Shown: one piece after another, positions 17,247 to 41,502 of the stretch
How positions within the stretch are numbered: position 1 is the first letter of the stretch
How the letters are laid out: each line of letters starts with the position of its first letter
Source: Escherichia phage Minorna
DNA: 43,264 nucleotides
Sequence record: NC_048172.1
Reading direction: 5' to 3' (one strand)
Position numbers and translations under genes: made by a program
Notes under the pieces: generated by a model
Told to the model about the DNA's origin: nothing
The model's database searches: none
What the model saw: only the letters and a program-made list of their open reading frames with translations

Positions 17247-17284
17247 AAAAAAAAAAGCCCCCGGCACCCGAAGGCACCAGGGGC
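17247..17284 (-). terminator. rho-independent terminator downstream of the capsid operon (T-phi-like)
   Basis: Minus-strand RNA gccccuggugcc-UUCG-ggugccgggggc followed by U10 (plus strand shows A10 at 17247-17256 then the hairpin): 12-bp stem including three G-U pairs, UUCG tetraloop, long U-tract. Confidence 0.85.
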
Positions 17285-17289
17285 GCATA

Positions 17290-21025: not shown

Positions 21026-21034
21026 GCTTCCTCC

Positions 21035-21298
21035 TTACAGGCCCAGGGGGTTGCTCTGCCCTGCCTGTCGCCGTTTCTTCTGCTCAGACGTAATTGCATC
21101 TGCAGATGCAGAGGCCGCCCCGGAGGGGTTGATCTCAGCAATATTGTCAGCTGCACTGTTCGCCTCTAAGGCTGCCTGCTGTTTTGCTGCCTCGGCCTGC
21201 TGCTCAGCCATGCGCTGCTGTTGTTCTAATCCTTCGTTATCAGTAAGGCCAAGCATATCCGTGGCCTTACCTAACAGTTTACCTAATCCACCGCTCAT
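21035..21298 (-). CDS. hypothetical protein (87 aa; possible small virion protein by position before the portal gene)
   Basis: Gln/Ala-rich helical ORF; contains the 16-bp palindrome TGCATCTGCAGATGCA in its coding sequence. Confidence 0.4.
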   Translation of the reverse strand: MSGGLGKLLGKATDMLGLTDNEGLEQQQRMAEQQAEAAKQQAALEANSAADNIAEINPSGAASASADAITSEQKKRRQAGQSNPLGL

Positions 21299-21735
21299 GC
21301 TGACCTCACTAAATGGTAAGTTGTTTTGTAAGTATTATCCGATGTATTGCGACTAATAGCGATGCGCCCAGCTCGCATACACTTAGCGATTGCTTGCAGA
21401 CCCTTCATAACTACAAGCATTGCCTCACTATTTCCTGGTTTCAATACGAAGAAGTCTGTGTACAACACAGGCTCTACGTAATGGCAGTCCTCTACAGCTT
21501 CTGGGTAGTAACTGACAGCACCTACTAAGTCGCCCCGGGAGTCATAGACTCCTAGTATATACTGTTTACCTAGTATACTTTTTAGTACTCTCCAATAGTG
21601 TTGCTCTGGAGCCAGGCCCCGACTAATGCCGTGGCCCAGTTCATGCAGTCGCTTCACTGCGTCTGTAATGTCGTCAGACTTATACAGAACCCTGAGAGTG
21701 TAGTCGGAAGTTTTACTAGTGTGTTTTAACTTCAT
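21295..21735 (-). CDS. hypothetical protein (146 aa)
   Basis: Start set to ATG 21735 (AGGAG 5 nt upstream); the track ORF to 21798 would overlap the upstream gene by about 40 nt. Confidence 0.45.
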   Translation of the reverse strand: MKLKHTSKTSDYTLRVLYKSDDITDAVKRLHELGHGISRGLAPEQHYWRVLKSILGKQYILGVYDSRGDLVGAVSYYPEAVEDCHYVEPVLYTDFFVLKPGNSEAMLVVMKGLQAIAKCMRAGRIAISRNTSDNTYKTTYHLVRSA

Positions 21736-21758
21736 TCCTACTCCTGTAACATTAAATT

Positions 21759-22097
21759 TTAGTAGGGTTCCCAAACCGGTATACCTGCCTTTCTGCACAG
21801 TTCAACCATACCAGCGGTCCCCCTTCCTCCAGGAAAGGCAACACAGTATTCAGGAAAGGCCAGGGATATCATGGCTGCGTTCCTACGTATACCCGCAGAT
21901 TTACCTTGTGCATCCCACAGTGCGGGCATACGCAGAACAAATACACCAGATTCCAGGGCCCACCTATCTGCCAGTGCATCCGCCCCTCTGGCATTTCCAT
22001 GTATCACTACAGATGGCTTGTTTGGCAGCATATCCATTGCGGTTTTTAGTGCTAGGTAGTCTGAGTAATCACGCCCACCAGTTACCAGTACTCTCAT
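21759..22097 (-). CDS. SLOG / YpsA-like (DUF2493-type) small protein
   Basis: 112 aa with pattern VLVTGGRDY..VVIHGNARGADALADRWA..FPGGRGT, which I recognise as the DUF2493/SLOG-family signature; immediately downstream of the RNAP gene. Confidence 0.55.
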   Translation of the reverse strand: MRVLVTGGRDYSDYLALKTAMDMLPNKPSVVIHGNARGADALADRWALESGVFVLRMPALWDAQGKSAGIRRNAAMISLAFPEYCVAFPGGRGTAGMVELCRKAGIPVWEPY

Positions 22098-22106
22098 ACG
22101 ATTCCC

Positions 22107-24575
22107 TCAACAAAAGAAGAATGGAGATTCCAGCACTTGTCGGATGTCCAAAGTACCGATTGCAGGCATCTCTAAATCTGTGAGGTCTGCCCCTGCTTCG
22201 GCAGCTGCCCGGGTAATATCTCCAAGCAGATCGTGCTCCTCGTACAACTTCACAAACTGTTCACGGATATGTCGGTGCAGGGCATCTACATCAGCCGCAT
22301 GAGTAGCCATTGAGTCGTGAATCGGGACAATATCCAGACCCTCTGCAGCACAGAGCACCATCATGAGGTGTGTGCTATCTAGGCTATGCACAAAGTTCGG
22401 AGCAATACCGGAGGCAGCCTTGCGCTTATTACAGGTCTTAAAGTCACGGTTGTGCACCAGCACGGCAGACAAGTTCATGCAGTCAATACGTACACGCACC
22501 TCCTCTCGTTGAGAGTACCGGTTCATCACTAGCCCACCTAGCGGGGTCTTCCACTGCAGATGCTGACTAGCAGGTACACGCCTAGCGAGGTTCTGCAGAT
22601 ACCCCATAGCTGCTGCTGCTGCCGGGTTAGCTTCCTCAATAGCGCTACGCATTCTAGGGGCAAGGTAGCAGGATAAGTTCCAGAGACTGTGCGTGTCTGT
22701 TCCTTCATACCCCTCTTCACAAGCACCTGCAAAGATGTAGTCGCTGCAGCTGCGCACCGTGGCGCTGTAGAAGTAGGTCATGCTAGGACGCTTGGTCATG
22801 CTTCGAGTGATTTTGTTCTCTCTCCAGTACGTGCTCTGGATAACGAAATCCTCTTTGTCCAGGTCCAGTATCACCTTCTCGTCCGTACGGCGCTTCACGT
22901 CCATATACAGGTCCGCTTTCTTGTCGTTACCCTCCCAGTACAAGTTAGTCAGGCGCCCGCCTACAGGGTCTCTCAGGAGCGCTGAGAGGTGCTGCCCACC
23001 TGAGTTTGTAGCATCCATAGCAACTGGGATTCGGCTAATATACTCTTCTGGGCATCCAGAACGTACAGCATTAACCAAGTCGATAGCGGCTGCCAGGAAG
23101 CACCAAGGGCTGTCGGCGGAGGTAAAAGCAGGGCAATCAAAAGGAGAATCCGCGAGCTGCTCAATCTCTGCAAAGTTTGCATCAACCCAAGCTGCACGGT
23201 CTTCGAATAGGGTTTTGTCATAACCAAAGCAGGTAGCGACGTGCACTTTAAGCCAGAATAACCCTCTCTCTCCCAGAGGTTTACCTCGTCCGAATTCAAG
23301 AAGTGCCTTCTGCAGATCAGAACCTTGGGGGTGCAGTGAGGACTTGAAGTACAGCCGGTATCGCCAATCCACACAGGTTGGGAAGTACAGGGCTTTCTCA
23401 TCTTTGAATTCCTCTGCCATCTCTAGCGTGGTCAATAGGCTACGTAGTTGCGACACACGCTTACGGTCAGCGCTGTACCAAAGAGACATACGCGTCTTCC
23501 ACTCTCCGAAGCGGTCGAGTTCCTCCTCGGTGTAATTCTCTTTTGGTACACCATCTAAGTACCACTCAGGTTTCGGCTCTGGCACTGAGCGCGGCATACC
23601 TACACCAATACCTAAGGCCCGTGCTTCTTGTACCAGTTCCAGTATTCGCTTATTAATGCGATAAGGAGTTTCCTGCGCCTTATTCAGTGCCTTCTTGATA
23701 CCGTCCGCAGACTTAAATGCTTCCGCTACTTCACGCAGTCTGGCGCGGTCAATGTGTGAGTTGTGGTACGTCCCACGGTTATCGATTGGGGTGAGGTATC
23801 CACCATCCCACAGTGTAGTATGTTGCACCGGCGGCACCAGCATCGGAGGCTTCATAGTTACAGTGTCAGCAGATTCCACTAACTGCTGAAATGCTTCCAT
23901 AACATTATCTGCGGGATAGAGCATACTCAAGTTCCCGCTACCAGTCTTCCATTGGAACAGCCCTGTCTCAAACACTGCGGAACACAGCAGACGTCCCACA
24001 GAAATATTCTGAGCGTTGGTCCAAGGCTCATGCCCATAGTGCACGTTCTCAGCACTGGCGCGGAGCGTACGCAGAATGTGCGTAGGCGACTTAGTACGGC
24101 GCTCAGTGAGGTATTCATATACCCGGTCCATATACGCTGGGGCAACATTACGCAGTTGTAGGGCCAGCAGCTCTGACTGTACATTCCTACCCAGAGCGGA
24201 CATCACTGCCTGTGCTGTCTGGCGGCGACTGGCGGACTCACCAGGGGCAACACTGAACGCCTCAAACATTGTGCACAGGCTCAGAGTAGTTAGGACATCC
24301 AAGGGGACTAAGCGTAGGAATCGGCGGTACTTTCCACCGATACCCGGGGCTTTGACATTACGCATTTCCTCAATGGCTGCAGAGGCCACGTCGTACGCAG
24401 AGGTTAGCATGCGCTGAGCCATAGGCAGGTTCATAATCCCGCCGTTTTGCAGAGCATCGGTAATCAATTTGCGAGCACGTTCAATGCCGCGAATCTTGTA
24501 GGTCTCTTCAAGCTCCAACTGACGTTCCACCAGCGCTTCATCTGGTACTACAACCGTATTCAGGGCGCTAATCAT
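22107..24575 (-). CDS. single-subunit DNA-directed RNA polymerase (T7-like)
   Basis: 822-aa ORF, the size of phiKMV-type single-subunit RNAPs, at the junction of replication and structural modules; AAGGAG SD upstream of the ATG. Confidence 0.85.
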   Translation of the reverse strand: MISALNTVVVPDEALVERQLELEETYKIRGIERARKLITDALQNGGIMNLPMAQRMLTSAYDVASAAIEEMRNVKAPGIGGKYRRFLRLVPLDVLTTLSLCTMFEAFSVAPGESASRRQTAQAVMSALGRNVQSELLALQLRNVAPAYMDRVYEYLTERRTKSPTHILRTLRASAENVHYGHEPWTNAQNISVGRLLCSAVFETGLFQWKTGSGNLSMLYPADNVMEAFQQLVESADTVTMKPPMLVPPVQHTTLWDGGYLTPIDNRGTYHNSHIDRARLREVAEAFKSADGIKKALNKAQETPYRINKRILELVQEARALGIGVGMPRSVPEPKPEWYLDGVPKENYTEEELDRFGEWKTRMSLWYSADRKRVSQLRSLLTTLEMAEEFKDEKALYFPTCVDWRYRLYFKSSLHPQGSDLQKALLEFGRGKPLGERGLFWLKVHVATCFGYDKTLFEDRAAWVDANFAEIEQLADSPFDCPAFTSADSPWCFLAAAIDLVNAVRSGCPEEYISRIPVAMDATNSGGQHLSALLRDPVGGRLTNLYWEGNDKKADLYMDVKRRTDEKVILDLDKEDFVIQSTYWRENKITRSMTKRPSMTYFYSATVRSCSDYIFAGACEEGYEGTDTHSLWNLSCYLAPRMRSAIEEANPAAAAAMGYLQNLARRVPASQHLQWKTPLGGLVMNRYSQREEVRVRIDCMNLSAVLVHNRDFKTCNKRKAASGIAPNFVHSLDSTHLMMVLCAAEGLDIVPIHDSMATHAADVDALHRHIREQFVKLYEEHDLLGDITRAAAEAGADLTDLEMPAIGTLDIRQVLESPFFFC

Positions 24576-24716
24576 AGGCGCTTAATCTCCTTGGTTATGT
24601 CCGGTATTTCTAATTACTGGTTTCGACTTAACCAGAGATTGTACATCTCCAGGTAGTCATTAGCGGAGCTTTCATCACCCCGCTCTATTGCTGCTTGCCA
24701 CATCCGGTGGCACCAC

Positions 24717-25031
24717 TCACTTGGAAGCATCTTCTCGCTGCTCTAATTCCAGAATAAACAAGGCGCAACACGCGGCGTGCGCTAGATGCGGAAGCCCGCT
24801 CTCGGTATCCGTTAACTCCCCATTAGCATGCGCCGTTAGGTGGCGCAGAAGCGCGGCTTTGTACCGAGACCGCCCCTCCTCAACAGTGTGCCAGCTATGT
24901 GCTGCATACTTCTGAGCTCCGAATGTAAGTACATCACTAATGCGGAGCAACGCATTAGGGCACCCATCCAGTAGCAGATCCATACGAGGTTTGCCTGCGT
25001 CATACTTCATACCAGTACCTACTGCGCTCAT
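24717..25031 (-). CDS. putative nucleotide pyrophosphohydrolase-like protein (MazG-like / dATP-dGTP diphosphohydrolase N-domain-like)
   Basis: 104 aa; MKYDAGKPRMDLL..FGAQKYAAHSW resembles the N-terminal signature of phage dNTP pyrophosphohydrolase-like proteins as I recall it; assignment tentative. Confidence 0.4.
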   Translation of the reverse strand: MSAVGTGMKYDAGKPRMDLLLDGCPNALLRISDVLTFGAQKYAAHSWHTVEEGRSRYKAALLRHLTAHANGELTDTESGLPHLAHAACCALFILELEQREDASK

Positions 25032-25522
25032 ACTAACTCCTCCACCCCATGAGATTTTAAATCGGTCCGATGTTCCGCCACGCCGTAGTCACATACAGCG
25101 TAAGTAGTGATACCCAGTCGGCGGAAATGCTCAATCACTGCAGGACTATCGTCCCAAGCTGCTACGATATTCTCTAACCCTACCTGGTTGCGCAGGAACT
25201 CCTCTTTGATAATGATGTCCTTTCGGTTGTCGCTGTGTGACCGCATAACCAGCTTGTGGTACATAACGAAGTTCCGCTCCAGCCAGGCCTCTGTTTCGGC
25301 TCTTACTATATCCGAGCGCCCCGTCAAGATAATAACTCGCAATCCTGCTCGCACCATGCTGTTACACACGTCGATAGTGTCCTGGAATGGAGGGTCATCC
25401 TTAGAGGCTCGGTTGAACTCGTTCCAACTATCGGTCAGATGCAAATCCACAGTGGGTAGCAAGTGCAAGCGATGCTTACCATCAGCTAGTGTGCCATCCA
25501 AATCAAAGATTGCTGTCTTCAC
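25028..25522 (-). CDS. HAD-family phosphatase (polynucleotide 3'-phosphatase-like)
   Basis: 164 aa beginning MKTAIFDLDGTLADG, the HAD motif I (DxDGT) at the extreme N-terminus. Confidence 0.6.
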   Translation of the reverse strand: MKTAIFDLDGTLADGKHRLHLLPTVDLHLTDSWNEFNRASKDDPPFQDTIDVCNSMVRAGLRVIILTGRSDIVRAETEAWLERNFVMYHKLVMRSHSDNRKDIIIKEEFLRNQVGLENIVAAWDDSPAVIEHFRRLGITTYAVCDYGVAEHRTDLKSHGVEELV

Positions 25523-25941
25523 TTAATAGTCTCCCGAGCTTTGCGTCGTGCTCTAGCCTTACGGGCCTTGAGCTTCTGTGCCTGTGCCAGTTCTTCCGGC
25601 GTCTTGTGCGTATAGTATAGCATATCCGTAGGTTCGCGGTCTAGGTAATCGGCGACCCTACGTAGAGATTCAGCAATAGCCCTAGAAGATTGCATGCTAC
25701 CAACAATCCAGCGCCCAGCGGCAGATGCCACTTTGCCTTCCCCTCCATTGCACGAGCGATGAAGAGCACCCCGAATACGCCCAGTAATATGATCGTGGTC
25801 AACGACAACAGAATCACCAGTTACCCCCTTGATTGTGAAGTCCAAAGGTTTTCCACAAAGGAGGCATATGCCCCCCTGGTCTTGGGCAAGCTTAATAGCC
25901 ACGGAGCGAATTTGTGCCCGTGTAATCTTTCTTAGGGCCAT
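25519..25941 (-). CDS. recombination endonuclease VII (Holliday junction resolvase-like)
   Basis: 140 aa with Cys cluster and His/Asp motif (CLLCGKPL..VVDHDHITGRIRGALHRSCN) as in endonuclease VII-type proteins; basic C-terminus. Confidence 0.7.
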   Translation of the reverse strand: MALRKITRAQIRSVAIKLAQDQGGICLLCGKPLDFTIKGVTGDSVVVDHDHITGRIRGALHRSCNGGEGKVASAAGRWIVGSMQSSRAIAESLRRVADYLDREPTDMLYYTHKTPEELAQAQKLKARKARARRKARETIK

Positions 25942-26135
25942 ACTTCAATCTCCCCCACTACATCCAGCATAGCATTGTCGTGAATGAGAGAATCCAAATG
26001 CTCAACTGTTCTTCGATGTGTTTTGGGTGCTCGTTCACGCAACGCGTCCAGAATAGTTTCCAGTTCATCATGTTTCCCCTCATAGTATAACTCAATCGCC
26101 CGCAGGCTCATTTCCTTCGCAGACATCTTCGCCAT
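25932..26135 (-). CDS. hypothetical protein (about 67 aa)
   Basis: Start set to ATG 26135 (AGGAG about 10 nt upstream); the track ORF to 26204 overlaps the exonuclease gene extensively. Confidence 0.4.
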   Translation of the reverse strand: MAKMSAKEMSLRAIELYYEGKHDELETILDALRERAPKTHRRTVEHLDSLIHDNAMLDVVGEIEVWP

Positions 26136-27060
26136 TGTCTGGGTGCTCCTGTATCCACTGTATGTGCTGTTTATGGTACTCGTGCAGCGACTGCACCCAG
26201 TCACGTAGACTGGGAGTAGTCAACAGTGACATCAGATACTGATAGGCAGAATCTGATTGGGAGCGTCGCAGGAACAGGCATTCAGCCTCTGCGAGTACAT
26301 CTTGGTTGTTTCTAGCATAAGCCGCTACAACGAACTCTGCGGCGTCTTGCTCTGAGGTAATAGGGTAGATAGCATCAAAGGCCGTTCGCTTGCCACAGGG
26401 CTTCCCATCAAGCAACGTGATGCCTTTGACGTTATCTGCGTCGTCTCCTGCTAGCATCTGCCACCAGAAGAACTTCAAGCCGTGTGCTCGTACAGGCATA
26501 GCCTGGGTGTCATCCCACTTAATCCATCCGAAGGGATCCTCCAGTGCAGGCCACACTGTACCGGTTGGGATATCAAACCGGGCCATAGGACTGAGCCAGG
26601 AATCTTTATCCTGTGACATCAGGATACCGCGCTCACCGAAGGCGTATGAATCCATTACGAACAGGTCATCCGCCTCGAAGAAGTCACTGCTAACCACCTG
26701 GATACCTTGCTCAGAATACTGGTCCGGGTTATCAATCAGGTGCCGCTTCAAAGGGGCCTTCAGTGGTAGCTCCTGCCGGTTAGCTCGCTGCCCCTGGTAG
26801 GGCTTAGCCGTAGGCAGGTGCCAGCGCAAGCACTTAGCACAGCCCGTAGGCGTTAGATACGCCACTGCTTCTGAGCAACCGACCAGGAACATATCCTCAA
26901 GCAGCAGCTGATAGAAGCGGCGTATCGCGGTATCTAGCCGTTTCACTGTAGCAGCGGCTTTGTACACGCAAAAGTCCGCATCATACAGCAGAATCTTCCC
27001 AGAGTTCTGCGGAGCTAACTGCTCTGGGAGCTGGGATAAGTCAACCCCGTTGATAATCAT
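26092..27060 (-). CDS. 5'-3' exonuclease (FEN/T7 gp6-like)
   Basis: 322 aa with ILLYDADF near the N-terminus, FEADDL, and a GDDADNVKGI helix-hairpin-helix-like motif, as in flap endonuclease/5'-3' exonuclease proteins. Confidence 0.75.
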   Translation of the reverse strand: MIINGVDLSQLPEQLAPQNSGKILLYDADFCVYKAAATVKRLDTAIRRFYQLLLEDMFLVGCSEAVAYLTPTGCAKCLRWHLPTAKPYQGQRANRQELPLKAPLKRHLIDNPDQYSEQGIQVVSSDFFEADDLFVMDSYAFGERGILMSQDKDSWLSPMARFDIPTGTVWPALEDPFGWIKWDDTQAMPVRAHGLKFFWWQMLAGDDADNVKGITLLDGKPCGKRTAFDAIYPITSEQDAAEFVVAAYARNNQDVLAEAECLFLRRSQSDSAYQYLMSLLTTPSLRDWVQSLHEYHKQHIQWIQEHPDNGEDVCEGNEPAGD

Positions 27061-27218
27061 TAGCGCCCCGTAATATCGCGGGCCTTCTTATCGGCCCAGT
27101 TAACCCAACGTTCAGCCCACTTCGCCTTTGTGAGTTTATCACACAGATAGCAGAGCCCCGCCAAGGGGATTAGTGGGAGAATCAAAACTACGTAAATCGC
27201 ACGCTGTAAGTATAGCAT
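27060..27218 (-). CDS. small membrane protein (52 aa), absent from the ORF track (below 60 aa)
   Basis: ATG at 27218-27216 shares its A with the upstream TGA stop; its TAA stop overlaps the exonuclease ATG (TAATG); translation MLYLQRAIYVVLILPLIPLAGLCYLCDKLTKAKWAERWVNWADKKARDITGR has one hydrophobic helix. Confidence 0.35.
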   Translation of the reverse strand: MLYLQRAIYVVLILPLIPLAGLCYLCDKLTKAKWAERWVNWADKKARDITGR

Positions 27219-27598
27219 CAGCACGACTCCAACTCAGACAGCACCAGCACGGTACCAAGCATGTCCCCGATTACTTCCGGCGTACGCAGGCTCTGGTCTA
27301 CATCGTAGATACAGGAACCAATCTCCGCCAACCCGATACTGAGAGTACCTACGATGCGGATAACTGCCAGATCGTCCCCCTTCAACTTATCGGCATGTGC
27401 CGCCAGGTCGTTGTGTTCCTTGAAGGCGGTAGCGGCCAGCTCCAGATCCATACCGTATAGGGCAGCCAGTTTATCCAGCGCATCATAGAGTGTGCCCAAC
27501 TCATCACCATCTACAACATAATCATGCGCCGAGTCGTATACCACTGAAGCTACAGCTTTAGCCAGATTCTTGTATGCATCTAATACTTTATCCATCAA
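27218..27598 (-). CDS. hypothetical protein (126 aa, acidic)
   Basis: ORF in the coupled gene array; no recognisable motif. Confidence 0.5.
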   Translation of the reverse strand: MMDKVLDAYKNLAKAVASVVYDSAHDYVVDGDELGTLYDALDKLAALYGMDLELAATAFKEHNDLAAHADKLKGDDLAVIRIVGTLSIGLAEIGSCIYDVDQSLRTPEVIGDMLGTVLVLSELESC

Positions 27599-27853
27599 TC
27601 ATACCCCCAGAAAGTTTACTACTTCATCACGCTTAGCGCGCAGTTTATCAGCCTGTTCAGCGCACTTAGCCGCTTCAGCTTTGCTGCGTTTGGAGTCTTC
27701 TACTCGTGCCTCGGATTGTGCCGCCAGGCGCACCGCATCATCTGCAAACTTAATCGACAACTGCTCATTCAGTTGTGCCTTAGCGTCAGCACGTTTAGCT
27801 TCTGCTGTATAAGCTACACTTAGGAGTTTGGTGAGAATCTTGATGATATTCAT
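27599..27853 (-). CDS. hypothetical coiled-coil protein (84 aa)
   Basis: Lys/Ala/Glu-rich helical ORF. Confidence 0.45.
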   Translation of the reverse strand: MNIIKILTKLLSVAYTAEAKRADAKAQLNEQLSIKFADDAVRLAAQSEARVEDSKRSKAEAAKCAEQADKLRAKRDEVVNFLGV

Positions 27854-27866
27854 AGGCTTCCTCTAA

Positions 27867-27882
27867 GGCCCCAGGCGGGGCC
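27867..27882 (-). promoter_or_regulatory. intergenic GC hairpin (6-bp stem, 4-nt loop) just upstream of an RBS
   Basis: Plus strand ggcccc-aggc-ggggcc at 27867-27882, between the stop of the 280-aa gene and the SD of the next gene; no U-tract. Confidence 0.3.
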
Positions 27883-27905
27883 GTATTAGTTAGTAATAGG
27901 GTTGC

Positions 27906-28748
27906 TTAGGCTTGCGGTGCAGCAGGCGCTACAGGAGCCGCTGGAGCCACTGGCGCTGCCGGTGCTACAGGGGCGCTTGGTGCTGTTGGTGCTACTGGAG
28001 CACTCGGTGCCGCTGGCGCAGTGGGCGCAGCCGGGGCCTGCATAGACTGAGGGCTCGGAACCGAACCAGCGTTCAGCATAATATCCAGGGCACTGCCCGG
28101 GAAGTCTACAGCCTTGTACATATCCTCCTGAATCCAGTTCTTGCTCTTACCGTCGTCCTTGGTCCCCTCAATATATAAGCTATCCCAGGTTTCCTTGGTC
28201 GGGTTGTTCCACAAGAACAGCTTAATCTCGGAAGCATCCAGCTCAGGCATTTTAATCGGCTCACCGGTATTCGGGTCGAACTTCGGAATCGGACGGATTG
28301 CCGCGAGGTCTACAATGTTAGACTTCTTACCTGCTGCGCTGGTGTGCTCATCCAGCGGGAACACAAACGCCTGTCCCAGTCGCTGCGCAGCGTGCTTAAT
28401 GCTGCCATCGTAGTTGAGCTTGTCGAAGAACTTCTTGAAGCCCGCGCGCTCAAAGTTGCTGATGGTCATCGGATATGGACGAATACGCTTAACCTCACCG
28501 TTCGGGCCGTACACCACAATCCCGATGCGAACGTTCGGCGCGGCAGGCTTACCGGTAGGCTTACCACCTTTAGTCGGCAGGCGCTTACCAATTTCCACGT
28601 ACTCAGTAAAGTAACCGTAGTACTCACCCTTCGGCAGAAGCACATCCTCATACGCACCACCCTGGGCGGTCTCAGTCATATCAACTTCTTGAGTTTCAAT
28701 CGCAGCAGCAACCAGGGAGTTCAGAGTGTCCAGTGCATTCATAGTCAT
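27906..28748 (-). CDS. hypothetical protein with C-terminal Pro/Ala-rich repeat tail (possible DNA-binding protein)
   Basis: 280 aa; globular N-terminal part followed by about 43 aa of (A/V/T/S)PAAP-type repeats. Confidence 0.55.
   Translation of the reverse strand: MTMNALDTLNSLVAAAIETQEVDMTETAQGGAYEDVLLPKGEYYGYFTEYVEIGKRLPTKGGKPTGKPAAPNVRIGIVVYGPNGEVKRIRPYPMTISNFERAGFKKFFDKLNYDGSIKHAAQRLGQAFVFPLDEHTSAAGKKSNIVDLAAIRPIPKFDPNTGEPIKMPELDASEIKLFLWNNPTKETWDSLYIEGTKDDGKSKNWIQEDMYKAVDFPGSALDIMLNAGSVPSPQSMQAPAAPTAPAAPSAPVAPTAPSAPVAPAAPVAPAAPVAPAAPQA
27909..28037 (-). repeat. imperfect in-frame tandem DNA repeat encoding the Pro/Ala-rich tail
   Basis: Plus-strand series of gcNggNgc(c/t)ac(t/a)gg-like units (gctacaggagccgctggagccactggcgctgccggtgctacagg...). 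Confidence 0.7.
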
Positions 28749-28799
28749 ATAATTACGTCCTCGTTTAGTTCAAGTAATATTTACGTGCAGATGCAGGGC

Positions 28800-28964
28800 T
28801 TAGAGTTTTGAAGCGACGGCGGCGGCAACGAACACCAGGATTATAGCCAGCGCAGCAGGGCCCCAGAACGGGAGCAGCACCCACAGCCAAGACCAGGTGA
28901 TAACTCCGGTCAGTTTCAAGGTTACAAAGATAAGGCCCAGTACAGAACAGATTCCCATTTTCAT
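28800..28964 (-). CDS. small hydrophobic membrane protein (2 predicted TM helices)
   Basis: Translation MKMGICSVLGLIFVTLKLTGVITWSWLWVLLPFWGPAALAIILVFVAAAVASKL; start set to ATG 28964 (GAGGTG upstream; alternative ATG 28958); track ORF extends to 29006. Confidence 0.45.
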   Translation of the reverse strand: MKMGICSVLGLIFVTLKLTGVITWSWLWVLLPFWGPAALAIILVFVAAAVASKL

Positions 28965-28977
28965 AATCACCTCTACG

Positions 28978-29958
28978 TTATTTAGAACGGCCAACCCAAC
29001 GACCATCGTCGTCGAGCAGCATCGGAATTAGCTGCGGACAACCCTCTGTGATTACCAGTACGCCTAGGATTGGTTTCTTACGGGCTAACCTACCGTATGC
29101 AAAGGCCAGACTCTTACGGTCAATCAAGCAGCCTGCATACGCGCCAAAATATAGTGCCGTCGAAGACGCTGCATACTGAACTTCGAACCGCCCATGCTCG
29201 TGACCGAGAACCAGTGAAGTGCGCTCATGGGACGCATTAAGCATGAAGTCACCTGATACTTGATGCTGGAAGCGGACAGGTCCCAGCGGTGTATTAAGTA
29301 CCCAAGCATCGGCCCACGACCATGCCGGAGCACCGTGCTCAGGGAACAAGATATCGCGGTACTTCTTAATAAATTGCACCGGCAAACCGTGAGCCTTGGC
29401 GCGACGATACACCAGACTCCCGTGATTGGAATCGCATACGAGAAGATTCGGGAAGAGTTCATGCAGCTGCTCCAGTACTAACTTAGCCTTCTCCAGTTCC
29501 ACCCCGGCGCTATCCAGGTTCGGGTTGCTTTCGTGGAATGAAATAGCGTGGCCGTCAGTCTCATCCCCAACTTGTACAACCATATCCGGGCAGTAAGTGT
29601 CTCGGACAGACTCTAAGAAGTCCATAGCGTCTACGTGGGTGTAAGGGGCATGCAGATCCCCTACCACTAAGATGCGGTGACACACCTCCGGGACGAAGGT
29701 TTTACCTAGGTCATCAGTCGGACTTGGCTGTATAAGCTTTAATGCCTCCTTCATATGTGACACAGCCTTGCCCTTGCTACCACCGTGATCTAGGAATATG
29801 CTGCGCCAATACTTAACCATCTGACGATATACTACTGGCTCACTTAACCCAGCCAGCTTATTATAGGCAGCTGCAGCATCCACGTTAGAGCTATACTTGC
29901 TCAGGATGTCTACATGTTGTTCTTTGGTGAACAGCTTTATTGTGTTTAACTTAGGCAT
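28978..29958 (-). CDS. calcineurin-like metallophosphoesterase
   Basis: 326 aa with ordered metallophosphatase motifs: VVGDLHAP (GDxH), VQVGDETDGH (GDxxD), DSNHG (GNH), GHEHG. Confidence 0.7.
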   Translation of the reverse strand: MPKLNTIKLFTKEQHVDILSKYSSNVDAAAAYNKLAGLSEPVVYRQMVKYWRSIFLDHGGSKGKAVSHMKEALKLIQPSPTDDLGKTFVPEVCHRILVVGDLHAPYTHVDAMDFLESVRDTYCPDMVVQVGDETDGHAISFHESNPNLDSAGVELEKAKLVLEQLHELFPNLLVCDSNHGSLVYRRAKAHGLPVQFIKKYRDILFPEHGAPAWSWADAWVLNTPLGPVRFQHQVSGDFMLNASHERTSLVLGHEHGRFEVQYAASSTALYFGAYAGCLIDRKSLAFAYGRLARKKPILGVLVITEGCPQLIPMLLDDDGRWVGRSK

Positions 29959-30385
29959 TCCAGCTCCTGTTACTTATTACGTCACTGATTACGTGTACAC
30001 CTACACCATACTTATTGGCGAAGTATTGTCGCACACCTTTCTTGTAAGGGATATAGTTATTTCTAATATCCTGCACAGCATCCCAAGATAGCTTCGCTTT
30101 TGGGTTTCTCTCTCCACGCACATCCGGGTTCCTTCCACGTTCCGCACGGTCTCTCATATTATCTAAATGTGTCCCCAGCACGAGGTGTTCTGGATTAATA
30201 CATCTAGGATTATCACAGGTATGCCTAACAGATAAGCCAGCTATAACATCTAAGCTTAGCCCGTTATGTTCTGCATACACCACCCTGTGTAGCAGTTCTA
30301 AGCGCTTGGTTGGTTTGTACCAAGCCCTACGATAGCCATTCTTATTAAGGCATTTAGTATACCCGTGGTCAATACACATCGACAT
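29951..30385 (-). CDS. HNH homing endonuclease
   Basis: 144 aa with HRVVYAEHNG..VRHTCDNPRCINPEHLVLGTHLDNM, a typical phage HNH nuclease motif; preceded by a 160-nt AT-rich non-coding segment. Confidence 0.8.
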   Translation of the reverse strand: MSMCIDHGYTKCLNKNGYRRAWYKPTKRLELLHRVVYAEHNGLSLDVIAGLSVRHTCDNPRCINPEHLVLGTHLDNMRDRAERGRNPDVRGERNPKAKLSWDAVQDIRNNYIPYKKGVRQYFANKYGVGVHVISDVISNRSWNA

Positions 30386-30546
30386 TTGGTATCCTCTTAT
30401 GTTGTTCCTACTCGTATCACATTAATTCTCGGTAAATCACAGAATCAAGCCAGAGTCAACAAATAATTTTATTTAATTATCTGCTTGACCCCAGCTAATT
30501 CTCGTGTTACCCTAACCCCCTACACCGCCCAAGGGTCCACCTATCA

Positions 30547-30768
30547 TCACTCCGCGATGAGCTTGTACTCTCCAGCGAAGAAGGTGATGCCGTCCCCAGG
30601 CTTCTCTGAATTATTGTCTGGATTCATTAACTCCACCTCCCAGAATTCGGGGTCATAAGATATCACACGATGCTGAGTGCCTGGTGCAAAGTAATCACGA
30701 TGTCTAGGTTCTAAGGGTTCCGGCCCAAGTCCCAGTATCTCCACAATACTACCCGGTTTAATAGTCAT
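30547..30768 (-). CDS. hypothetical protein (73 aa)
   Basis: Small ORF directly after the DNA polymerase gene; start overlaps the polymerase stop. Confidence 0.45.
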   Translation of the reverse strand: MTIKPGSIVEILGLGPEPLEPRHRDYFAPGTQHRVISYDPEFWEVELMNPDNNSEKPGDGITFFAGEYKLIAE

Positions 30769-33131
30769 TCTACTTTCTCCTTACTGTACATGCTTGTACC
30801 CATTTCAGCTTCCGCTGGGAACGGGACTTCGCCAATGATGCCGTAGTTAGGCCAGAGCTGGTGAATACGCTTAGGTGCATCCTCCATACACTGCTTAACT
30901 AACAGGCTCGCTTCTCTGCCTACTTCCGGATTAGCACTATCCAGATACAATGCATCGTGCACGTTCGTAATCAAGCACACCTGATTATTGAACCAATCCC
31001 GTGCCAGCATTGCACGCAGAACCATACCAGCTGCTACCGCCATCAGGAAGAATGCCTCACCCTGACACCAGTAGTTAGCCATCTCAGTTTCTTTGTAGTC
31101 CATCACCTTTTGTTTGCGCTGGCCAGGGACTACTTCCTTCCACTGCTCCTTCTGGCGGAAACTGTACCGTGCACCAGCTGGGCTGGTCCAGGTGCCAATG
31201 CGGTAGATGCGGTAGCTGCCATCATCCGCTTGCTCCCGGTAAATGCGCCCAGCCGCCCCGGTGCGCTCTACCTCCTCCTTTACTACCGCCCGGAATCCGA
31301 TGGTGTCTGGGAACAGCTTCGCCTCGTTATCCAGGAACGACTGCGCATACTCCACTGTACAGCCTGTAGCAAACGCAATCCCTTTAGCCGTAGCCCCGTA
31401 CTGTGCAGCAAAGCTCGGAGGCTTAATGTCCGTACGCTGCTGCTTCCAGTATTTGTAGTCCGGCCCATCTGCGTTGTGGCAGAGGTCGTACATCTCTTCG
31501 TAGGTTTTGCCCTCCTTGAACGCTAGGCGGTAGCAGTGCATATCCGTGCCGTTCTGCAGCAAACCCAACAGCTTCCTGTCTCCGGTGTGAACACAAGACA
31601 TAACCACTTCCAGGGCAGAGTAGTCAACCTCAGTGATACGACCGGATTCACCGAAACGGGAAGTGAACATCTGTTTTACTTTACTAGTTCCATCTCGCGG
31701 GAGATTCTGGAGGTTTGGGTTAGAGCCAGATAGTCTCCCGGTAACAGTAGCACAGGTGTTGAGGCGGTGGTGGATAACACCCGAACCATCAAGGTTCTGA
31801 GGTATAACATATTGGAGCATGCCTGAGGTCTTTTTAATTGACCCATCTTCGTTATACTCCGTTCGTAGATAGTAAGTTCCTGTATCCTTTTCCAGAGCGC
31901 CGAGTTCGTTCACCAATCGACAGAACTCAAATCCATGACGTGCTAGGGCTTCCATTGCATCTGTGCTGGTGCTGTAGATTGGTGTCCCATCCTGCAAGCA
32001 CCGAGCTTGCCTGAACTCCCCACGCTCAGCGTATTTCTCTCGGAGCACCTCTGGGAGTTCTTGGATGTTAACTAGGCCTGGACAGAAGTAGAGGTCGTCC
32101 TCCCACTTGAGTTTCTCCTCTTCAGTGTCCACTCGGAACACTTTTGGTAGGCCCTTGTTCTTCCCTGCTTTGTAGGTTACATAATTGTGTGGTCCAGATA
32201 CGTCGGTGCTATCACAAGGTACGAATGTTCCGTCAGTGCCCTGCACCAGGTACGCATCACACTTAACGTACTGTGGAGGGTCGTATGGTACTTTCTTGCG
32301 ATACTTGATAGGGCCACCGTATACCAGTGCAGACATATGGAAGTCCGAGCCGAAGTTGAAATCCAGTGTCTCCGGCAAGTCCTTCGGGATGTATTGTTGC
32401 AGCTCCTTCTTAATCTCCAGGATACGCTGCTCCTGCTCCTCTTGGTTCTTGCGAGCAATGGGCATATTCACGAACAGACCGAACCATTCGCAGTAGGCCC
32501 AGGCCAGTAAGGCATCCATGCGCTCCCACACATACTGCATCTGATTACGCTGGGCGAACGTAGCGCACTGGCCGTAGAAGCACAGGGCCGTGTTCGGTAT
32601 ATCCCCATTCACTAGGTAGTCATGCAATAGCATAGGATCAATCTGGGAGGTTAATACACCTTGATCCCAGAGAATCTTAACCCCATCTACTTTGTGCGTA
32701 CCGCCGTACTTAGGAGCCGTCTCGTCCAGTGACGGATACATGCTCTGAAAGTCCGAGGCGATGTATTCTCCGTGCATCGTGCAGAACACCCTGCCGCCGC
32801 GCTTGAGGAAGGCCTCAAACTGCTGCCGCTGGTACGTGAGAAACCAAGAAATCTCATAGGCTGCGTTGTGCGCAACAATAAGCCAGCAATCTTCTGGGAT
32901 ATGAAACCACCGGCAGCCTTCTGCTGCACTGTTTCCCGCCAAGAAATCAGCTCTTGAATTGAAGCGCACCGATTGAGTCGCACCAACAGTGGTAGTACCG
33001 TCAGCCTGTGTCGTGTCGATACGCCATGCTGACTCAACAACATAGTTGTCAGGGCAGTATGGGCTTGCTTTAGAGCCATAATATTCATGGTTCTCTGTCT
33101 CCAAGTCGATGTGCATTATGCTGGTTGTCAT
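30765..33131 (-). CDS. DNA polymerase (family A, with 3'-5' exonuclease domain)
   Basis: 788 aa; N-terminal Exo I-like HIDLETE; Pol A fingers motif VTGRLSGSNPNLQNLP; position after the helicase gene. Confidence 0.85.
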   Translation of the reverse strand: MTTSIMHIDLETENHEYYGSKASPYCPDNYVVESAWRIDTTQADGTTTVGATQSVRFNSRADFLAGNSAAEGCRWFHIPEDCWLIVAHNAAYEISWFLTYQRQQFEAFLKRGGRVFCTMHGEYIASDFQSMYPSLDETAPKYGGTHKVDGVKILWDQGVLTSQIDPMLLHDYLVNGDIPNTALCFYGQCATFAQRNQMQYVWERMDALLAWAYCEWFGLFVNMPIARKNQEEQEQRILEIKKELQQYIPKDLPETLDFNFGSDFHMSALVYGGPIKYRKKVPYDPPQYVKCDAYLVQGTDGTFVPCDSTDVSGPHNYVTYKAGKNKGLPKVFRVDTEEEKLKWEDDLYFCPGLVNIQELPEVLREKYAERGEFRQARCLQDGTPIYSTSTDAMEALARHGFEFCRLVNELGALEKDTGTYYLRTEYNEDGSIKKTSGMLQYVIPQNLDGSGVIHHRLNTCATVTGRLSGSNPNLQNLPRDGTSKVKQMFTSRFGESGRITEVDYSALEVVMSCVHTGDRKLLGLLQNGTDMHCYRLAFKEGKTYEEMYDLCHNADGPDYKYWKQQRTDIKPPSFAAQYGATAKGIAFATGCTVEYAQSFLDNEAKLFPDTIGFRAVVKEEVERTGAAGRIYREQADDGSYRIYRIGTWTSPAGARYSFRQKEQWKEVVPGQRKQKVMDYKETEMANYWCQGEAFFLMAVAAGMVLRAMLARDWFNNQVCLITNVHDALYLDSANPEVGREASLLVKQCMEDAPKRIHQLWPNYGIIGEVPFPAEAEMGTSMYSKEKVE

Positions 33132-33316
33132 ACTACACGCATCTCCCCTACGTAAAAGTCTTCGTGCGGAACGTTGTAGTGTTTGCGGCTATCATTCAAC
33201 CAATACGCAGCAAGCTCCGCGTGGTATCGGTCTTTGAAACACCCCAACACCTCCTCGCCGTAATCCTCATAGTCCCAGCTATAGCTATACATCAGCATGT
33301 ATATCTTCATTTCCAT
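33128..33316 (-). CDS. hypothetical protein (62 aa)
   Basis: Small ORF translationally coupled to the DNA polymerase gene. Confidence 0.45.
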   Translation of the reverse strand: MEMKIYMLMYSYSWDYEDYGEEVLGCFKDRYHAELAAYWLNDSRKHYNVPHEDFYVGEMRVV

Positions 33317-33462
33317 TTAGCCCTCCGAGCCTTGTTAATTGCCAAGTGCACAATCAGCTGGCTGCTATCCAGTGCGAACCGTTTACGGAAAGTACCTGCA
33401 GATGCAGCGTACGCCTTGATTACCTCATCGTCGAGATAGTTAATGTCTAGTGGTTTAAGCAT
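33307..33462 (-). CDS. small ORF (51 aa), absent from the ORF track
   Basis: ATG at 33462 with AGGAGG 6 nt upstream; stop overlaps the next gene start; contains the CTGCATCTGCA motif in its coding sequence. Confidence 0.35.
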   Translation of the reverse strand: MLKPLDINYLDDEVIKAYAASAGTFRKRFALDSSQLIVHLAINKARRAKWK

Positions 33463-33480
33463 GGTAGCCTCCTATGTACC

Positions 33481-33510
33481 TACATAGCGCCCTCTAGGAA
33501 GGCGCTAGGG
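33481..33510 (-). promoter_or_regulatory. conserved dyad element, copy 3 (tagcgcc-N9-ggcgcta)
   Basis: Plus strand tacatagcgccctctaggaaggcgctaggg; shares ACATAGCGCCC and the GCTA arm with the elements at 40691 and 41467; 19 nt upstream of the ATG at 33462, just after the helicase stop. Confidence 0.45.
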
Positions 33511-33513
33511 AAG

Positions 33514-34794
33514 TCACCTGTTAATCTGCCCTTCGTTAAAGCGGCACCTACCTGGGTCGAATGCCACCTCGAATTGCAGGAGCGATTCTTTACCAGATAG
33601 TGCCATCTTATTCTTCGGCGTACTGATACCACGAATGTTTTGCATATGCGGCTGCTCATTCCTGTCCAAGCACCCCATCATAATCGCCAAATCCAAAGCA
33701 CCTTGTACACCAATCTTACTCTGTTTCATTGCCGTGAGCGGAGGGAACAGTAGGTTGTAACCTTCGAGTGAAAGCTGCATAGTACCGATAACGGCACAGT
33801 CATTCTCACACCCCAAGATACGCAGCTCCTGCCACTTCGCTTCTAGATTCTGGTGCTCACTCTCCATAGTACCACCACGGATGTTCGCCACCATATCAAT
33901 GATGATTACCGCTGGGCGCATCTCCTCCATGAGCGTAGAGATTTGAGCCATCGTAAGGGAGTGCGCTGCCTTGATACGGATGCGGTCTGCCCTACCTACT
34001 TTCTCCAGATAGGCTGGCACAAACTCTTGCTTACTGTGCCTGTCCTTAATCTCAGCCAGAGTCCAATGCAGCGCCGCTTGGTATACCCTCGGCACAGTAC
34101 GCGTCGCCGGGCCTTCATTAACCAGCCATAGAATCGGACGATCCCCGTACACTTCCGGTTGCTGCTGCATCTGCTTAGCGAAGTCCACAGCAATAGCAGC
34201 GAGTAGGCTAGTTTTACCAGAATCAACAGGGGCAGCCACAGCAATACAATCACCACCACGAAGCCCACGGATGCTATTAGAGAGTTGCTCAAACACACCC
34301 AGCTTAAGACCGCCACTTTCATCAGTCGCGGCAAGTATCTCATCAACACTTCCGCTCTCCCATTCCAGTAGCGAATCATGAACAGCAGCACCATCACCGT
34401 ACTTGCGCTGGAGGTGCTTCATCTCCAGCAGGTAATCAACTTCCTCCCCGTCTTGGTAGCGCTGCGTGAGCGCTGCGACCTCTCCACTGTACGCCAGCTC
34501 GTTCAGGGTCTGGACAATCCCCACCACAGAATCCTGCGGCACGGCTTGTACTCCCCGCATAAGCTCGTCCATGATTACCCTCTCTTCCCGGGATAAGTGT
34601 CCGGCCCGGAGATTGAGCATGCTCTGCATTGCATCCCACTGCACCTCCTGGTGCTCTGGGTACGTGTTCCAGTACAGCCCTACCCAGTCAAGTAGGTTCG
34701 AGGTATCAGGGGCGAGCATGCTCTTGGGTATCTGCTCTCGCAGTCGGTTCCAGACCTTCTGCGTGCACATTGCCTTGACTACTATTAGGTCCAA
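33514..34794 (-). CDS. replicative DNA helicase (DnaB-like)
   Basis: 426 aa with Walker A-like AAPVDSGKTSLLAAIAV and DnaB-like C-terminal architecture; adjacent to the primase region. Confidence 0.8.
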   Translation of the reverse strand: MDLIVVKAMCTQKVWNRLREQIPKSMLAPDTSNLLDWVGLYWNTYPEHQEVQWDAMQSMLNLRAGHLSREERVIMDELMRGVQAVPQDSVVGIVQTLNELAYSGEVAALTQRYQDGEEVDYLLEMKHLQRKYGDGAAVHDSLLEWESGSVDEILAATDESGGLKLGVFEQLSNSIRGLRGGDCIAVAAPVDSGKTSLLAAIAVDFAKQMQQQPEVYGDRPILWLVNEGPATRTVPRVYQAALHWTLAEIKDRHSKQEFVPAYLEKVGRADRIRIKAAHSLTMAQISTLMEEMRPAVIIIDMVANIRGGTMESEHQNLEAKWQELRILGCENDCAVIGTMQLSLEGYNLLFPPLTAMKQSKIGVQGALDLAIMMGCLDRNEQPHMQNIRGISTPKNKMALSGKESLLQFEVAFDPGRCRFNEGQINR

Positions 34795-35019
34795 TTATAC
34801 AATCTCCACTCTGATAGTTCTGTTTGGGCCACCAACTTCATGAACATAGTGACGGAAGTATTCTAACTGCAGTCGCCGCTTTGCATCTTCCAGTGCTTGG
34901 TGGTACTGTACCAGCTTACGCTCCTCCTGCTTGCTACGGCAGTATCCACACTTAAGGTCGTGCCAGGAGCGATAACCTTTTCCACAGTCACAAACATGGC
35001 TAATTAATTGTACGCCCAT
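34795..35019 (-). CDS. hypothetical zinc-ribbon protein (74 aa)
   Basis: Two Cys pairs (CDCGKGY..CGYCRSK) suggest a zinc ribbon. Confidence 0.45.
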   Translation of the reverse strand: MGVQLISHVCDCGKGYRSWHDLKCGYCRSKQEERKLVQYHQALEDAKRRLQLEYFRHYVHEVGGPNRTIRVEIV

Positions 35020-35225
35020 TAAACCTCCACTTTGTAGATGGCACTCTTTCTAGCATGCGCTCGACACAGGCTCTCTGCCTCATGAAGGTTGGGGTACGTG
35101 TTAATACCTACCCCACGCCCGGATCTGCACAGTTGCCACCAGCGCACCGGAAACCACCAGAACTTAACCTGCGCCTCAAATCCTGCGTAGTTGTCCTGCA
35201 CTACTCTGTACTTATTCTTAAACAT
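35019..35225 (-). CDS. hypothetical protein (68 aa)
   Basis: Small basic ORF coupled to neighbours. Confidence 0.4.
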   Translation of the reverse strand: MFKNKYRVVQDNYAGFEAQVKFWWFPVRWWQLCRSGRGVGINTYPNLHEAESLCRAHARKSAIYKVEV

Positions 35226-36006
35226 TCAAAGCCTCTAGTATCTCTTTGATTTCTGCGTCCTTCGGGTCCGCAGCGAAGTAGTGTTCTCGGCATTGCATGA
35301 ACGGGCGCAGCGCTTTGCGTGCCGCTGCTACCCCAGCATGCCCTGCCAGGTCATTGTCCAGCATTAGAATCACTTCCGGGCGATTCTGAATCAGCCAGGC
35401 CCTTAGCTGCGTGGGCAAGCGTGTACCCAGCATAGCTATAGCCTGCACGTTCAACGCACTGTAGCTCGTAACTGCGTGCTGTATCTTCCGGGCTGAGAGT
35501 AAGTCCTCGGTGAGCACGACCTTTAGAGGTGCGGCCGCAGCTACAGCCGGTGCTACGGCAGGTGCCGCGACAGCGAAAGCTATTGGCTGGCCGTACATTA
35601 CCCACTTCGGTTGCTGCCGGGCATGAACAGCACGGCCCAGTACAGCACCCCCGACACAGAATAGTATCCGCTGTTTCTCGTTGCTCCACTCTGCATCCTC
35701 CACCATTTCAGGCATGATTCCTTTTGAAGCAAGGAATCCGTAAATAAAACTCTGCGTTTCCGCAGGCGCTTGGCTAATGCAAATTGCATCTGCAGGTGCA
35801 GAGGGCTGCACCCTCGGCTCTTCCTGTAACTGTATGCGCTGGTACTGCTTGCGCTCCTTGCCTACCTGTTTGCAGCGGTGGCAATAGTATTCCCAGGCAT
35901 CCGGGTTATTGTAGAGCACCCCGGCGGCGTCCCTGCCGCAGCACCGAAAGCGTGCCCTCTGCCCCACGGCCAGGCGCTTGCACGCTCTAAGCCAGGGTTG
36001 GTCCAT
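35218..36006 (-). CDS. DNA primase (zinc-binding N-terminus plus TOPRIM domain)
   Basis: 262 aa; N-terminal Cys pairs (RCCGRD..CHRCKQ) and TOPRIM-like acidic motifs (VVLTEDLLSARK..ILMLDNDLAGHAG). Confidence 0.75.
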   Translation of the reverse strand: MDQPWLRACKRLAVGQRARFRCCGRDAAGVLYNNPDAWEYYCHRCKQVGKERKQYQRIQLQEEPRVQPSAPADAICISQAPAETQSFIYGFLASKGIMPEMVEDAEWSNEKQRILFCVGGAVLGRAVHARQQPKWVMYGQPIAFAVAAPAVAPAVAAAAPLKVVLTEDLLSARKIQHAVTSYSALNVQAIAMLGTRLPTQLRAWLIQNRPEVILMLDNDLAGHAGVAAARKALRPFMQCREHYFAADPKDAEIKEILEALNV

Positions 36007-40690: not shown

Positions 40691-40720
40691 TTCACATAGC
40701 GCCCCGCAGGACGCTATAGG
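40691..40720 (-). promoter_or_regulatory. conserved dyad element, copy 1 (atagcg-N10-cgctat)
   Basis: Plus strand ttcacatagcgccccgcaggacgctatagg; 26 of 30 nt identical to copy 2, with a compensatory pair change in the stem; lies in a 188-nt intergenic gap; a perfect TATAAT (minus strand, 40732-40727) sits just upstream. Confidence 0.5.
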
Positions 40721-40855
40721 CTTACCATTATACGTATTCTCCCAATCCCTCATAGTGCCACCTGTTATGGCGGCCTCGGGTTGGCACATCAAAGGCGTCA
40801 GAGTCGTTAGCTGCCGGAATCAGTGCTCACCACTTGATAGCTTGAATCTTATAAA

Positions 40856-41496: not shown

Positions 41497-41502
41497 CTGT
41501 AA

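Follow-up and report, generated by a model that had tools for sequence, protein, structure and literature searches.

Why should two unrelated genes of one phage carry the same 23 bases, almost letter for letter and in the same reading frame? The question is raised by the genome of Escherichia phage Minorna (sequence record NC_048172.1). The stretch of DNA analysed here, referred to below as the window, is 43,264 bp long, represents a complete phage genome with every gene on the minus strand and is identical to the IMG/VR contig UViG_2974544971_000001. The phage belongs to the genus Drulisvirus, in the KP34-like group of Autographiviridae, and AV102, an Escherichia phage of the same genus, displays 97.5% identity to it across the compared 5.6-kb stretch. 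Read on the coding strand, the element in question is CCTCTGCAYCTGCAGATGCAATT; it is present in two copies with 22/23 bases identical, one in the gene of a small virion protein of 87 amino acids (aa) and the other in the primase gene. These features, together with the single-strand interruption that we predict at the second copy, are located as follows.

21092-21114, minus strand: copy 1, CCTCTGCATCTGCAGATGCAATT, in the 87-aa virion-protein gene, 66 nucleotides (nt) before the portal start.
35782-35804, minus strand: copy 2, CCTCTGCACCTGCAGATGCAATT, in the primase, within the linker that joins the zinc finger to the Toprim domain.
21035-21298, minus strand: gene of the 87-aa virion protein (PHROG 3112), which hosts copy 1 and directly precedes the portal gene.
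35218-36006, minus strand: primase gene, which hosts copy 2.
35796-35798, minus (coding) strand: predicted single-strand interruption in the first TGCA of copy 2, CCTCTGC^A^CCTG, with a tolerance of one base.

Our results suggest that the 23-mer is not a promoter but the sequence recognised by a DNA nicking activity specific to site and strand, a reading to which we assign a probability of about two in three. The motif would thus be the Drulisvirus counterpart of the 'localized single-strand interruptions' of T5, of the phiKMV-like phages and of phage tf.

The two copies differ at one position only, base 9 of the coding-strand motif, which is T in copy 1 and C in copy 2 (A/G on the plus strand), and the coding-strand reading with its variable base is CCTCTGCA[T/C]CTGCAGATGCAATT. 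The shared frame gives the peptide SASADAI in the virion protein and SAPADAI in the primase. An initial annotation of this DNA had described the pair accurately, apart from placing copy 1 one position too high (21093-21115), and had held such a match to be unlikely by chance, an opinion that both of our null models bear out. Indeed, no other repeat of the window with at most one mismatch is as long (23 nt; the runner-up has 21), and repeats of at least 23 nt arose in 5 of 3000 codon-permutation shuffles, in which codons are permuted within genes (P=0.002), and in 46 of 3000 synonymous-codon shuffles, in which the proteins are kept; in no shuffle did such a repeat come from this pair of sites. 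The copy pair is far beyond chance. Outside the 23 bases, the copy 1 and copy 2 loci show no similarity, and a search of 5,426 E. coli genomes gave no match to the motif, which argues against a host origin.

Conservation was analysed in ~57 related loci of 20 kb surrounding the exonuclease gene and in 59 surrounding an internal virion protein gene, with ~55 relatives from IMG/VR and ~245 from GenBank, and per-site entropy was scanned in 30,000 overlapping 23-nt windows between 2 and 36.4 kb. Both copies occupy the same gene positions and are almost invariant in relatives that differ by ~15% overall from the window. Their entropy quantiles are 0.0082 (copy 1) and 0.0023 (copy 2), and the probability that randomly placed copies would both land in the lowest 0.8% and 0.2% of diversity is ~2e-5. 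The initial annotation had proposed a signal superimposed on coding sequence and had named beforehand, as the test that could overturn this proposal, a comparison of synonymous sites with relatives. Within the genus, the motif is kept at synonymous sites, which are frozen in both copies: 70% of 9,315 background third-codon positions display common polymorphism, vs 0/8 in each copy (P=6e-5 each). The few variants observed within the motif are mostly rare and non-synonymous, as would be expected if the nucleotides, and not the peptide, were under constraint. Within IMG/VR, the 19-base motif core was found in Drulisvirus contigs only, twice in each, besides one chance match in a giant-virus bin. 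Note that an overlapping open reading frame (ORF) of 63 aa, starting at an ATG inside copy 2, was rejected as a candidate, with a premature stop in 50/54 relatives.

Each copy stands in a low-diversity block that exceeds the motif itself.

35763-35851, minus strand: block around copy 2, 89 nt without common polymorphism, 0/30 third-codon positions polymorphic.
21067-21115, minus strand: block at copy 1, 49 nt, which extends downstream from the 5' edge of copy 1, 0/16 third-codon positions polymorphic.

The 89-nt block is the longest within the 34 kb examined, and at its upstream edge it meets divergent primase N-terminal alleles in a mosaic junction; the remaining long low-diversity blocks are known signals, namely the capsid terminator, the late promoter, the middle promoter variant and translation start regions. 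Among GenBank records, 165/245 carry the 89-nt block at 99% identity or more and 242/246 a 54-nt block around copy 1 at 95–100% identity, and the surrounding 5.6 kb is 80–90% identical in 235/254. Both blocks have a sharp upstream edge and a downstream tail of ~100 nt.

The evidence for a strand break comes from another member of the genus, the Klebsiella phage fHe-Kpn01, in which all genes lie on the positive strand (Viruses 2020, 12:544). Beyond the two genome ends, a third PhageTerm peak was reported for this phage at nt 7873 of the positive strand, its S1-nuclease fragments include one just below 8 kb, and its authors conclude that the DNA is nicked at 7873 (Viruses 2020, 12:544). In the corresponding record (MN380459), the primase gene spans 7664-8455 and a 23-mer identical to copy 2 is found at 7866-7888; thus, nt 7873 corresponds to motif base 8, which is the A in the first TGCA. 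The chance of an unrelated coordinate landing in either copy is ~1e-3. This genome also carries copy 1 (22714-22736) and six copies of the shorter core described below, all on the positive strand. In addition, the record of Klebsiella phage ZH4 (PV872879.1) has 36,181 bp, approximately the length from the motif site to the right genome end, and starts on the coding strand with CCTGCAGATGCAATT, that is at motif base 9, one base off the fHe-Kpn01 peak. The ZH4 record is labelled a complete genome; its sequence breaks off at the motif within the primase, its left 7–8 kb seem to be missing, and its primase is annotated from an internal Met. Based on sequence identity to fHe-Kpn01, we predict a nick in the minus strand of the window phage at 35796-35798. 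Our literature searches yielded no Drulisvirus transcript map and, fHe-Kpn01 apart, no report of a nick in the genus, and the motif string was not found in any paper of the searched literature.

In the mechanism that we propose, the enzyme would read the motif itself rather than its flanks, and the C/T difference at base 9, beside the cut, would explain a major signal at the primase copy only. Copy 1 is probably a minor or uncut candidate site, since no second peak was reported in fHe-Kpn01; neither a read-start peak nor a record end has been reported at 22714-22736, the copy 1 equivalent. Major and minor nick sites coexist in T5, and single substitutions can abolish nicking in tf. More speculatively, repair or recombination started by the nick would overwrite the downstream flank, giving the ~100-nt low-diversity tails, and the same repair would have placed the motif, as a short patch, into an unrelated gene and into a second phage lineage. 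Three properties of nick sites as a class are found in the motif, namely a shared consensus, sites that all lie on one strand (2/1 in P64441, an Escherichia phage from outside the genus) and positions conserved among relatives; the strand break itself is supported indirectly, by proxy, for copy 2 through fHe-Kpn01 and ZH4.

Several observations weigh against this nicking role. Since only one extra peak was reported in fHe-Kpn01, neither copy 1 nor any of the shorter cores, among them a C-version in its terminal repeat, is a major nick; what the two copies have in common thus does not suffice for efficient nicking. The fHe-Kpn01 peak and the ZH4 end lie one base apart, the latter could be an assembly break, and the nick position in the window phage is itself carried over from the fHe-Kpn01 coordinate. 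Among the endonuclease genes, those of HNH type vary in presence and position, and nothing links endonuclease VII, encoded by a core gene, to the motif. The nicks of the phiKMV-like phages lie on the non-coding strand, whereas the nick reported in Drulisvirus and the cores are on the coding strand. Finally, the conserved blocks are much longer than 23 nt, and that of the primase begins 47 nt upstream of the motif, where it adjoins a junction linked to a homing-endonuclease gene, so that part of the conservation may have another cause.

The motif also has a shorter family. The window contains four copies of an 11-base core, CTGCAYCTGCA, all on the coding strand, and two of these copies lie outside the 23-mers.

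28781-28803, minus strand: intergenic element GCCCTGCATCTGCACGTAAATAT, with its core at 28786-28796, just upstream of the 280-aa gene and 38 nt before its ATG.
27906-28748, minus strand: 280-aa middle gene, whose counterpart in Cronobacter phage Peggy is annotated as a DNA-binding protein.
33397-33407, minus strand: core in a 51-aa ORF, polymorphic (GCA/GCG) in ~30% of relatives.

Both short cores had been noticed in the initial annotation, with the suggestion that Ala-Ser codon usage might partly lie behind them. Codon usage does not explain them: under codon-aware nulls, ~0.05 genic copies are expected and 0/1500 shuffles reached the observed count, and the counts across genera are confined almost to one strand. 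Indeed, with an expectation of 0.05–0.09 per strand, the coding and other strands carry 4/0 cores in the window, 6/0 in fHe-Kpn01, 3/0 in Peggy, 3/0 in Shigella phage Buco (21 kb) and 2/1 in P64441; the Vibrio relative has no CTGCAYCTGCA core. Over the window, Peggy, Buco, P64441 and the Vibrio relative together, 12 of 13 copies lie on the coding strand. The core at 33397-33407 is probably not constrained, given its polymorphism. The intergenic element, in turn, is conserved in Drulisvirus, Buco and Peggy, in which both it and the primase core stand at equivalent positions. The full 23-mer was absent in the primase and virion-protein genes of Buco, Peggy, phiKDA1, PAS7, ECO104 4-5-2 and the Vibrio phage. 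Two further observations concern partial matches. The C-version core CTGCACCTGCA is found at 96-106 and 43203-43213 of fHe-Kpn01, within its 222-bp direct terminal repeat, and the window itself has no core near its ends. At 15117-15128 on the plus strand, the window carries TTGCATCTGCAG, the first 12 bases of the plus-strand form of the motif counted from its third base; this match shows local conservation (entropy 0.016) and lies on the non-coding strand of the gene for tail tubular protein B.

Outside the genus, P64441 has 21/23 motif bases in its homologous virion-protein gene, with near-identical limits. Codons that encode the same residue are identical in 7/7 cases inside the motif vs 2/9 in the flanks (Fisher P=0.003), and the sister phages of P64441, its closest relatives, are without the motif. 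P64441 retains three TGCA units at 6-base spacing. The virion-protein and primase peptides already have x-D-A-[IL] in common in distant relatives, and a gene conversion between the two genes, such as one from the virion-protein gene into the primase, may have run in either direction, since the Vibrio phage primase already has x-D-A-L-C-I-S-Q. A wider hypothesis, possible in our view but doubtful, is that CTGCAYCTGCA belongs to a strand-specific nicking system common to several KP34-related enterobacterial phage genera, in which the nick starts local recombination and the site is self-propagating. Repair from co-infecting genomes would then overwrite ~100 nt downstream, leaving the diversity troughs, and would occasionally copy the site to new places, such as the Drulisvirus primase and the P64441 virion-protein gene, and copies that differ only beside the cut, one a major nick and the other not, would define the specificity determinant.

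The alternatives involve the promoters and several neighbouring genes of the window, whose coding order runs from early genes through primase, helicase, DNA polymerase, RNA polymerase, the 87-aa virion protein and portal to the structural and lysis genes. For the KP34 RNA polymerase, a strong promoter, T(A/G)ATGTTACAGGAGTA (also given as TAATGTTACAGGAGTA), and a weak promoter, ACTTTGGACATCCGTCAAGT, have been determined experimentally; the enzyme is reported to accept these two unrelated sequences, and the literature gives four promoters per genome.

22107-24575, minus strand: RNA polymerase gene.
19430-21025, minus strand: portal gene, with a TTG start.
29951-30385, minus strand: gene of an HNH homing-type endonuclease (Pfam HNH_3 and a zinc-binding loop).
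10162-10177, 21739-21754, 30409-30424 and 42722-42737, minus strand: strong promoter sites, two exact, one with 3 mismatches and one with 2.

The strong-promoter family is the same as the repeat family detected at 10159, 21736, 30406 and 42719. As a candidate KP34-type promoter, the 23-mer was rejected: scans of both strands that allowed up to 5 or 6 mismatches did not retrieve it.

What the initial annotation had offered as examples of a nucleotide-level signal were a phage RNA polymerase promoter and a binding site for a dimeric protein; the signal over coding sequence is itself well supported, but neither example is. An operator for a dimeric DNA-binding regulator, or a phage RNA polymerase promoter, would take its appeal from the perfect 16-bp palindrome TGCATCTGCAGATGCA (21095-21110, inside copy 1), which is present as first described, and from the 23-bp size, which fits T7-type promoters, all the more with a polymerase that accepts two unrelated promoters. 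However, the palindrome alone is not unusual (2 palindromes of at least 16 bp in the window vs 0.67 expected, P=0.16), it is broken in copy 2 in every relative, and it is lost in P64441, which keeps the remaining motif; expected by chance and without conservation in the family, it was ruled out as the key feature. Moreover, the 23-mer resembles neither the strong nor the weak promoter, the four known sites already fill the promoter count of the literature, and ten early and middle proteins gave no DNA-binding domain, all of which leaves this explanation very improbable. A transcription or RNA-level signal on the coding strand (a third-class promoter, a pause site or mRNA processing), with the nick at copy 2 incidental or secondary, is closer to the data. 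All cores lie on the transcribed sense strand, the intergenic core element directly upstream of a major middle gene is conserved across genera, conservation extends downstream at both copies as at the known late promoter, both copies stand 66 nt upstream of an AGGAA-type ribosome site and start, and a conserved promoter-like 16-mer is found 14 nt upstream of copy 2. Yet the motif resembles no experimental KP34 promoter, no sigma-70-like promoter was found around the three sites scanned, folding energies at the two copies are ordinary (z-scores of +0.32 and -0.85, not significant), and neither Rfam families nor tRNAs match at the motif, whose invariance leaves no covariation. The 66-nt spacing and in-register similarity are also weak (P=0.04, post hoc; 60 nt in P64441), and a physical strand break at base 8 would be left unexplained. 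We therefore regard such a signal as unlikely.

The target of a mobile HNH homing endonuclease, whose motif would be conserved and spread by repeated homing and co-conversion and not by a maintained nick with its own function, offers a different account of the same conservation. The site has 23 bp, is asymmetric and lies within essential genes, and Drulisvirus genomes carry 2–5 HNH genes at variable places (20 kb examined), the window having one. An HNH gene is found directly upstream of the primase only together with a divergent primase N-terminal allele, which ends at ~35851-35855, the edge of the conserved block. Recombination is intense in these genomes, with very fast linkage decay (r2 down to 0.14 within 100–200 nt), and linkage ranks among the lowest 1.5% across copy 2, but is ordinary across copy 1 (quantile 0.42). 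No HNH gene is common to all motif-bearing genomes (fHe-Kpn01 has one only, located elsewhere), and the site is identical in genomes with and without neighbouring HNH genes, which is not the behaviour of a classical homing target; we consider this origin quite improbable. Much the same holds for the proposal that the copies have no function in common, the 22/23 identity being due to chance or to one short-patch gene conversion and the break near copy 2 being set by its flanks. Such match lengths do arise in 0.2–1.5% of shuffled genomes, the two peptides had x-D-A-[IL] in common already in distant relatives, the flanks past the 23-mer are dissimilar while the conserved blocks are longer than the motif, and the break was reported at one of two copies only. 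Against this, coincidence would have to place both copies among the least diverse sites of the genome, let the reported break fall inside the shared motif, enrich the core family strongly on one strand in several genera and set near-identical limits to the motif in P64441.

Other elements of the window were recorded during this analysis. The late promoter and the variant at 30409 lie in deep conservation troughs; the predicted start of the late promoter is a G at 21738, 3 nt before the ATG of the next gene at 21735, and the transcript would be almost leaderless. A promoter-like 16-mer, TACAGTTACAGGAAGA (35819-35834, minus strand), matches the strong promoter at 12/16 positions, with the 9-mer GTTACAGGA exact and followed by G; located 14 nt upstream of copy 2, it is conserved like true promoters (entropy quantile 0.003), and the other matches with 4–5 mismatches in the genome are not conserved. 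On the plus strand, the promoter sites (e.g., 21736-21746) read TCCTACTCCTG, which has CCTACTCC in common with the phiKMV nick consensus (CCTA/CTCCGG); within the window, CCTACTCC is confined to the reverse complements of the four promoter sites and has no CGAC upstream. A 32-nt repeat (88% identical) is found at 40691-40722 and 41467-41498, and its reverse complement matches AGCCTATAGCGTCCTACGGGGCGCTATGTGAA, a phage promoter predicted earlier that was inactive with the KP34 RNA polymerase in vitro. The conserved AT-rich intergenic element ATAATTAAATAAAATTATTTGTTGACTC (30453-30480, minus strand) precedes the middle promoter variant by 25 nt and may represent an origin-like or host-promoter element. 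In the record of KP-Rio/2015, an antisense sigma-70-like promoter with 3 mismatches is annotated at 1116-1143 (~21056-21083 of the window), just downstream of copy 1; it is a prediction that our sigma-70 scan did not reproduce.

Hairpins and repeats complete this picture. The invariant hairpin GCCCCTGGTGCCTTCGGGTGCCGGGGGC (17257-17289, minus strand) corresponds to the rho-independent terminator that has been described between the capsid and tail-tube genes of the genus, and a scan for intrinsic terminators around three sites gave one terminator-like hairpin (35752-35765), weak and within chance expectation. The longest palindrome of the genome is a perfect 18-bp one, GATGTAGATATCTACATC, at 5776-5793, within a 113-aa tail-fibre-like gene. 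Four copies (81–100% identical) of a 21-nt direct repeat, AGGGATAGCTCTAGGGATAGC, occupy 42503-42523, 42772-42792 and 42881-42913 in the non-coding region of the left end. The ribosome sites and start codons that stand exactly 66 nt after the two copies (21026-21091 and 35716-35781, minus strand) belong to the portal TTG and to the in-frame Met98 of the primase, whose ribosome site can pair in a 7-bp local hairpin.

Returning to the 23-mer as a candidate nicking site, its interest lies in a class of events that is established yet unexplained: site-specific nicks in phage DNA have been described since the 1960s in T5 and later in the phiKMV-like phages. In Drulisvirus, a large and therapy-relevant genus, there was previously one nick coordinate in one phage, and this coordinate is now tied to a conserved 23-bp candidate recognition site with a near-identical second copy and a one-strand core family across genera. 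With a single base of difference beside the cut, the copy pair constitutes a natural specificity experiment and a simple route to the nickase. The motif also accounts for frozen synonymous sites in two unrelated genes, which is relevant to the recoding or engineering of these phages. Note that read pile-ups or contig breaks at the motif may pass for genome ends, as the truncated ZH4 record suggests.

How does the motif compare with known systems? In the phiKMV-like Pseudomonas phages (phiKMV, LUZ19, LKD16 and phikF77), four nicks follow the consensus 5'-CGACNNNNNCCTA/CTCCGG-3' on the non-coding strand. These are podoviruses with the same genome plan, and their few consensus sites also lie on one strand at conserved positions, inside or between genes, with varying frequency. 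In contrast, their consensus is unrelated, since the 23-mer shows no resemblance to the phiKMV-type sequence CGACNNNNNCCTACTCCGG, and four nicks stand against one major signal reported in Drulisvirus (fHe-Kpn01). As the motif differs in both sequence and strand, it is not a copy of the phiKMV system. With T5 (5'-R/GCGCRGG-3') and tf (5'-TACT/RTGMC-3', 14 sites), it has in common strict one-strand placement and a short consensus in which some substitutions are tolerated and others abolish nicking, although these systems belong to other phage groups, have a shorter consensus and, for tf, many more sites. The KP34 strong promoter is likewise a short asymmetric motif with few copies per genome, frozen genus-wide and partly inside genes, but its sequence is different, it has its own four sites, and it is experimentally a promoter.

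HNH intron endonucleases of the I-HmuI type are known for strand-specific nicking and for the exclusion of flanking markers; they resemble the present case in an asymmetric site of ~25 bp within an essential replication gene, of which one strand is cut and at which gene conversion is expected, and differ from it in that no endonuclease gene consistently adjoins either motif copy. As to the fHe-Kpn01 nick, the paper gives the coordinate only, and neither the recognition sequence nor the second copy, the cores or the conservation appears in the text and supplement searched (Viruses 2020, 12:544); the nick itself is found in the same genus and in the same gene, within an identical 23-mer of which its coordinate is base 8.

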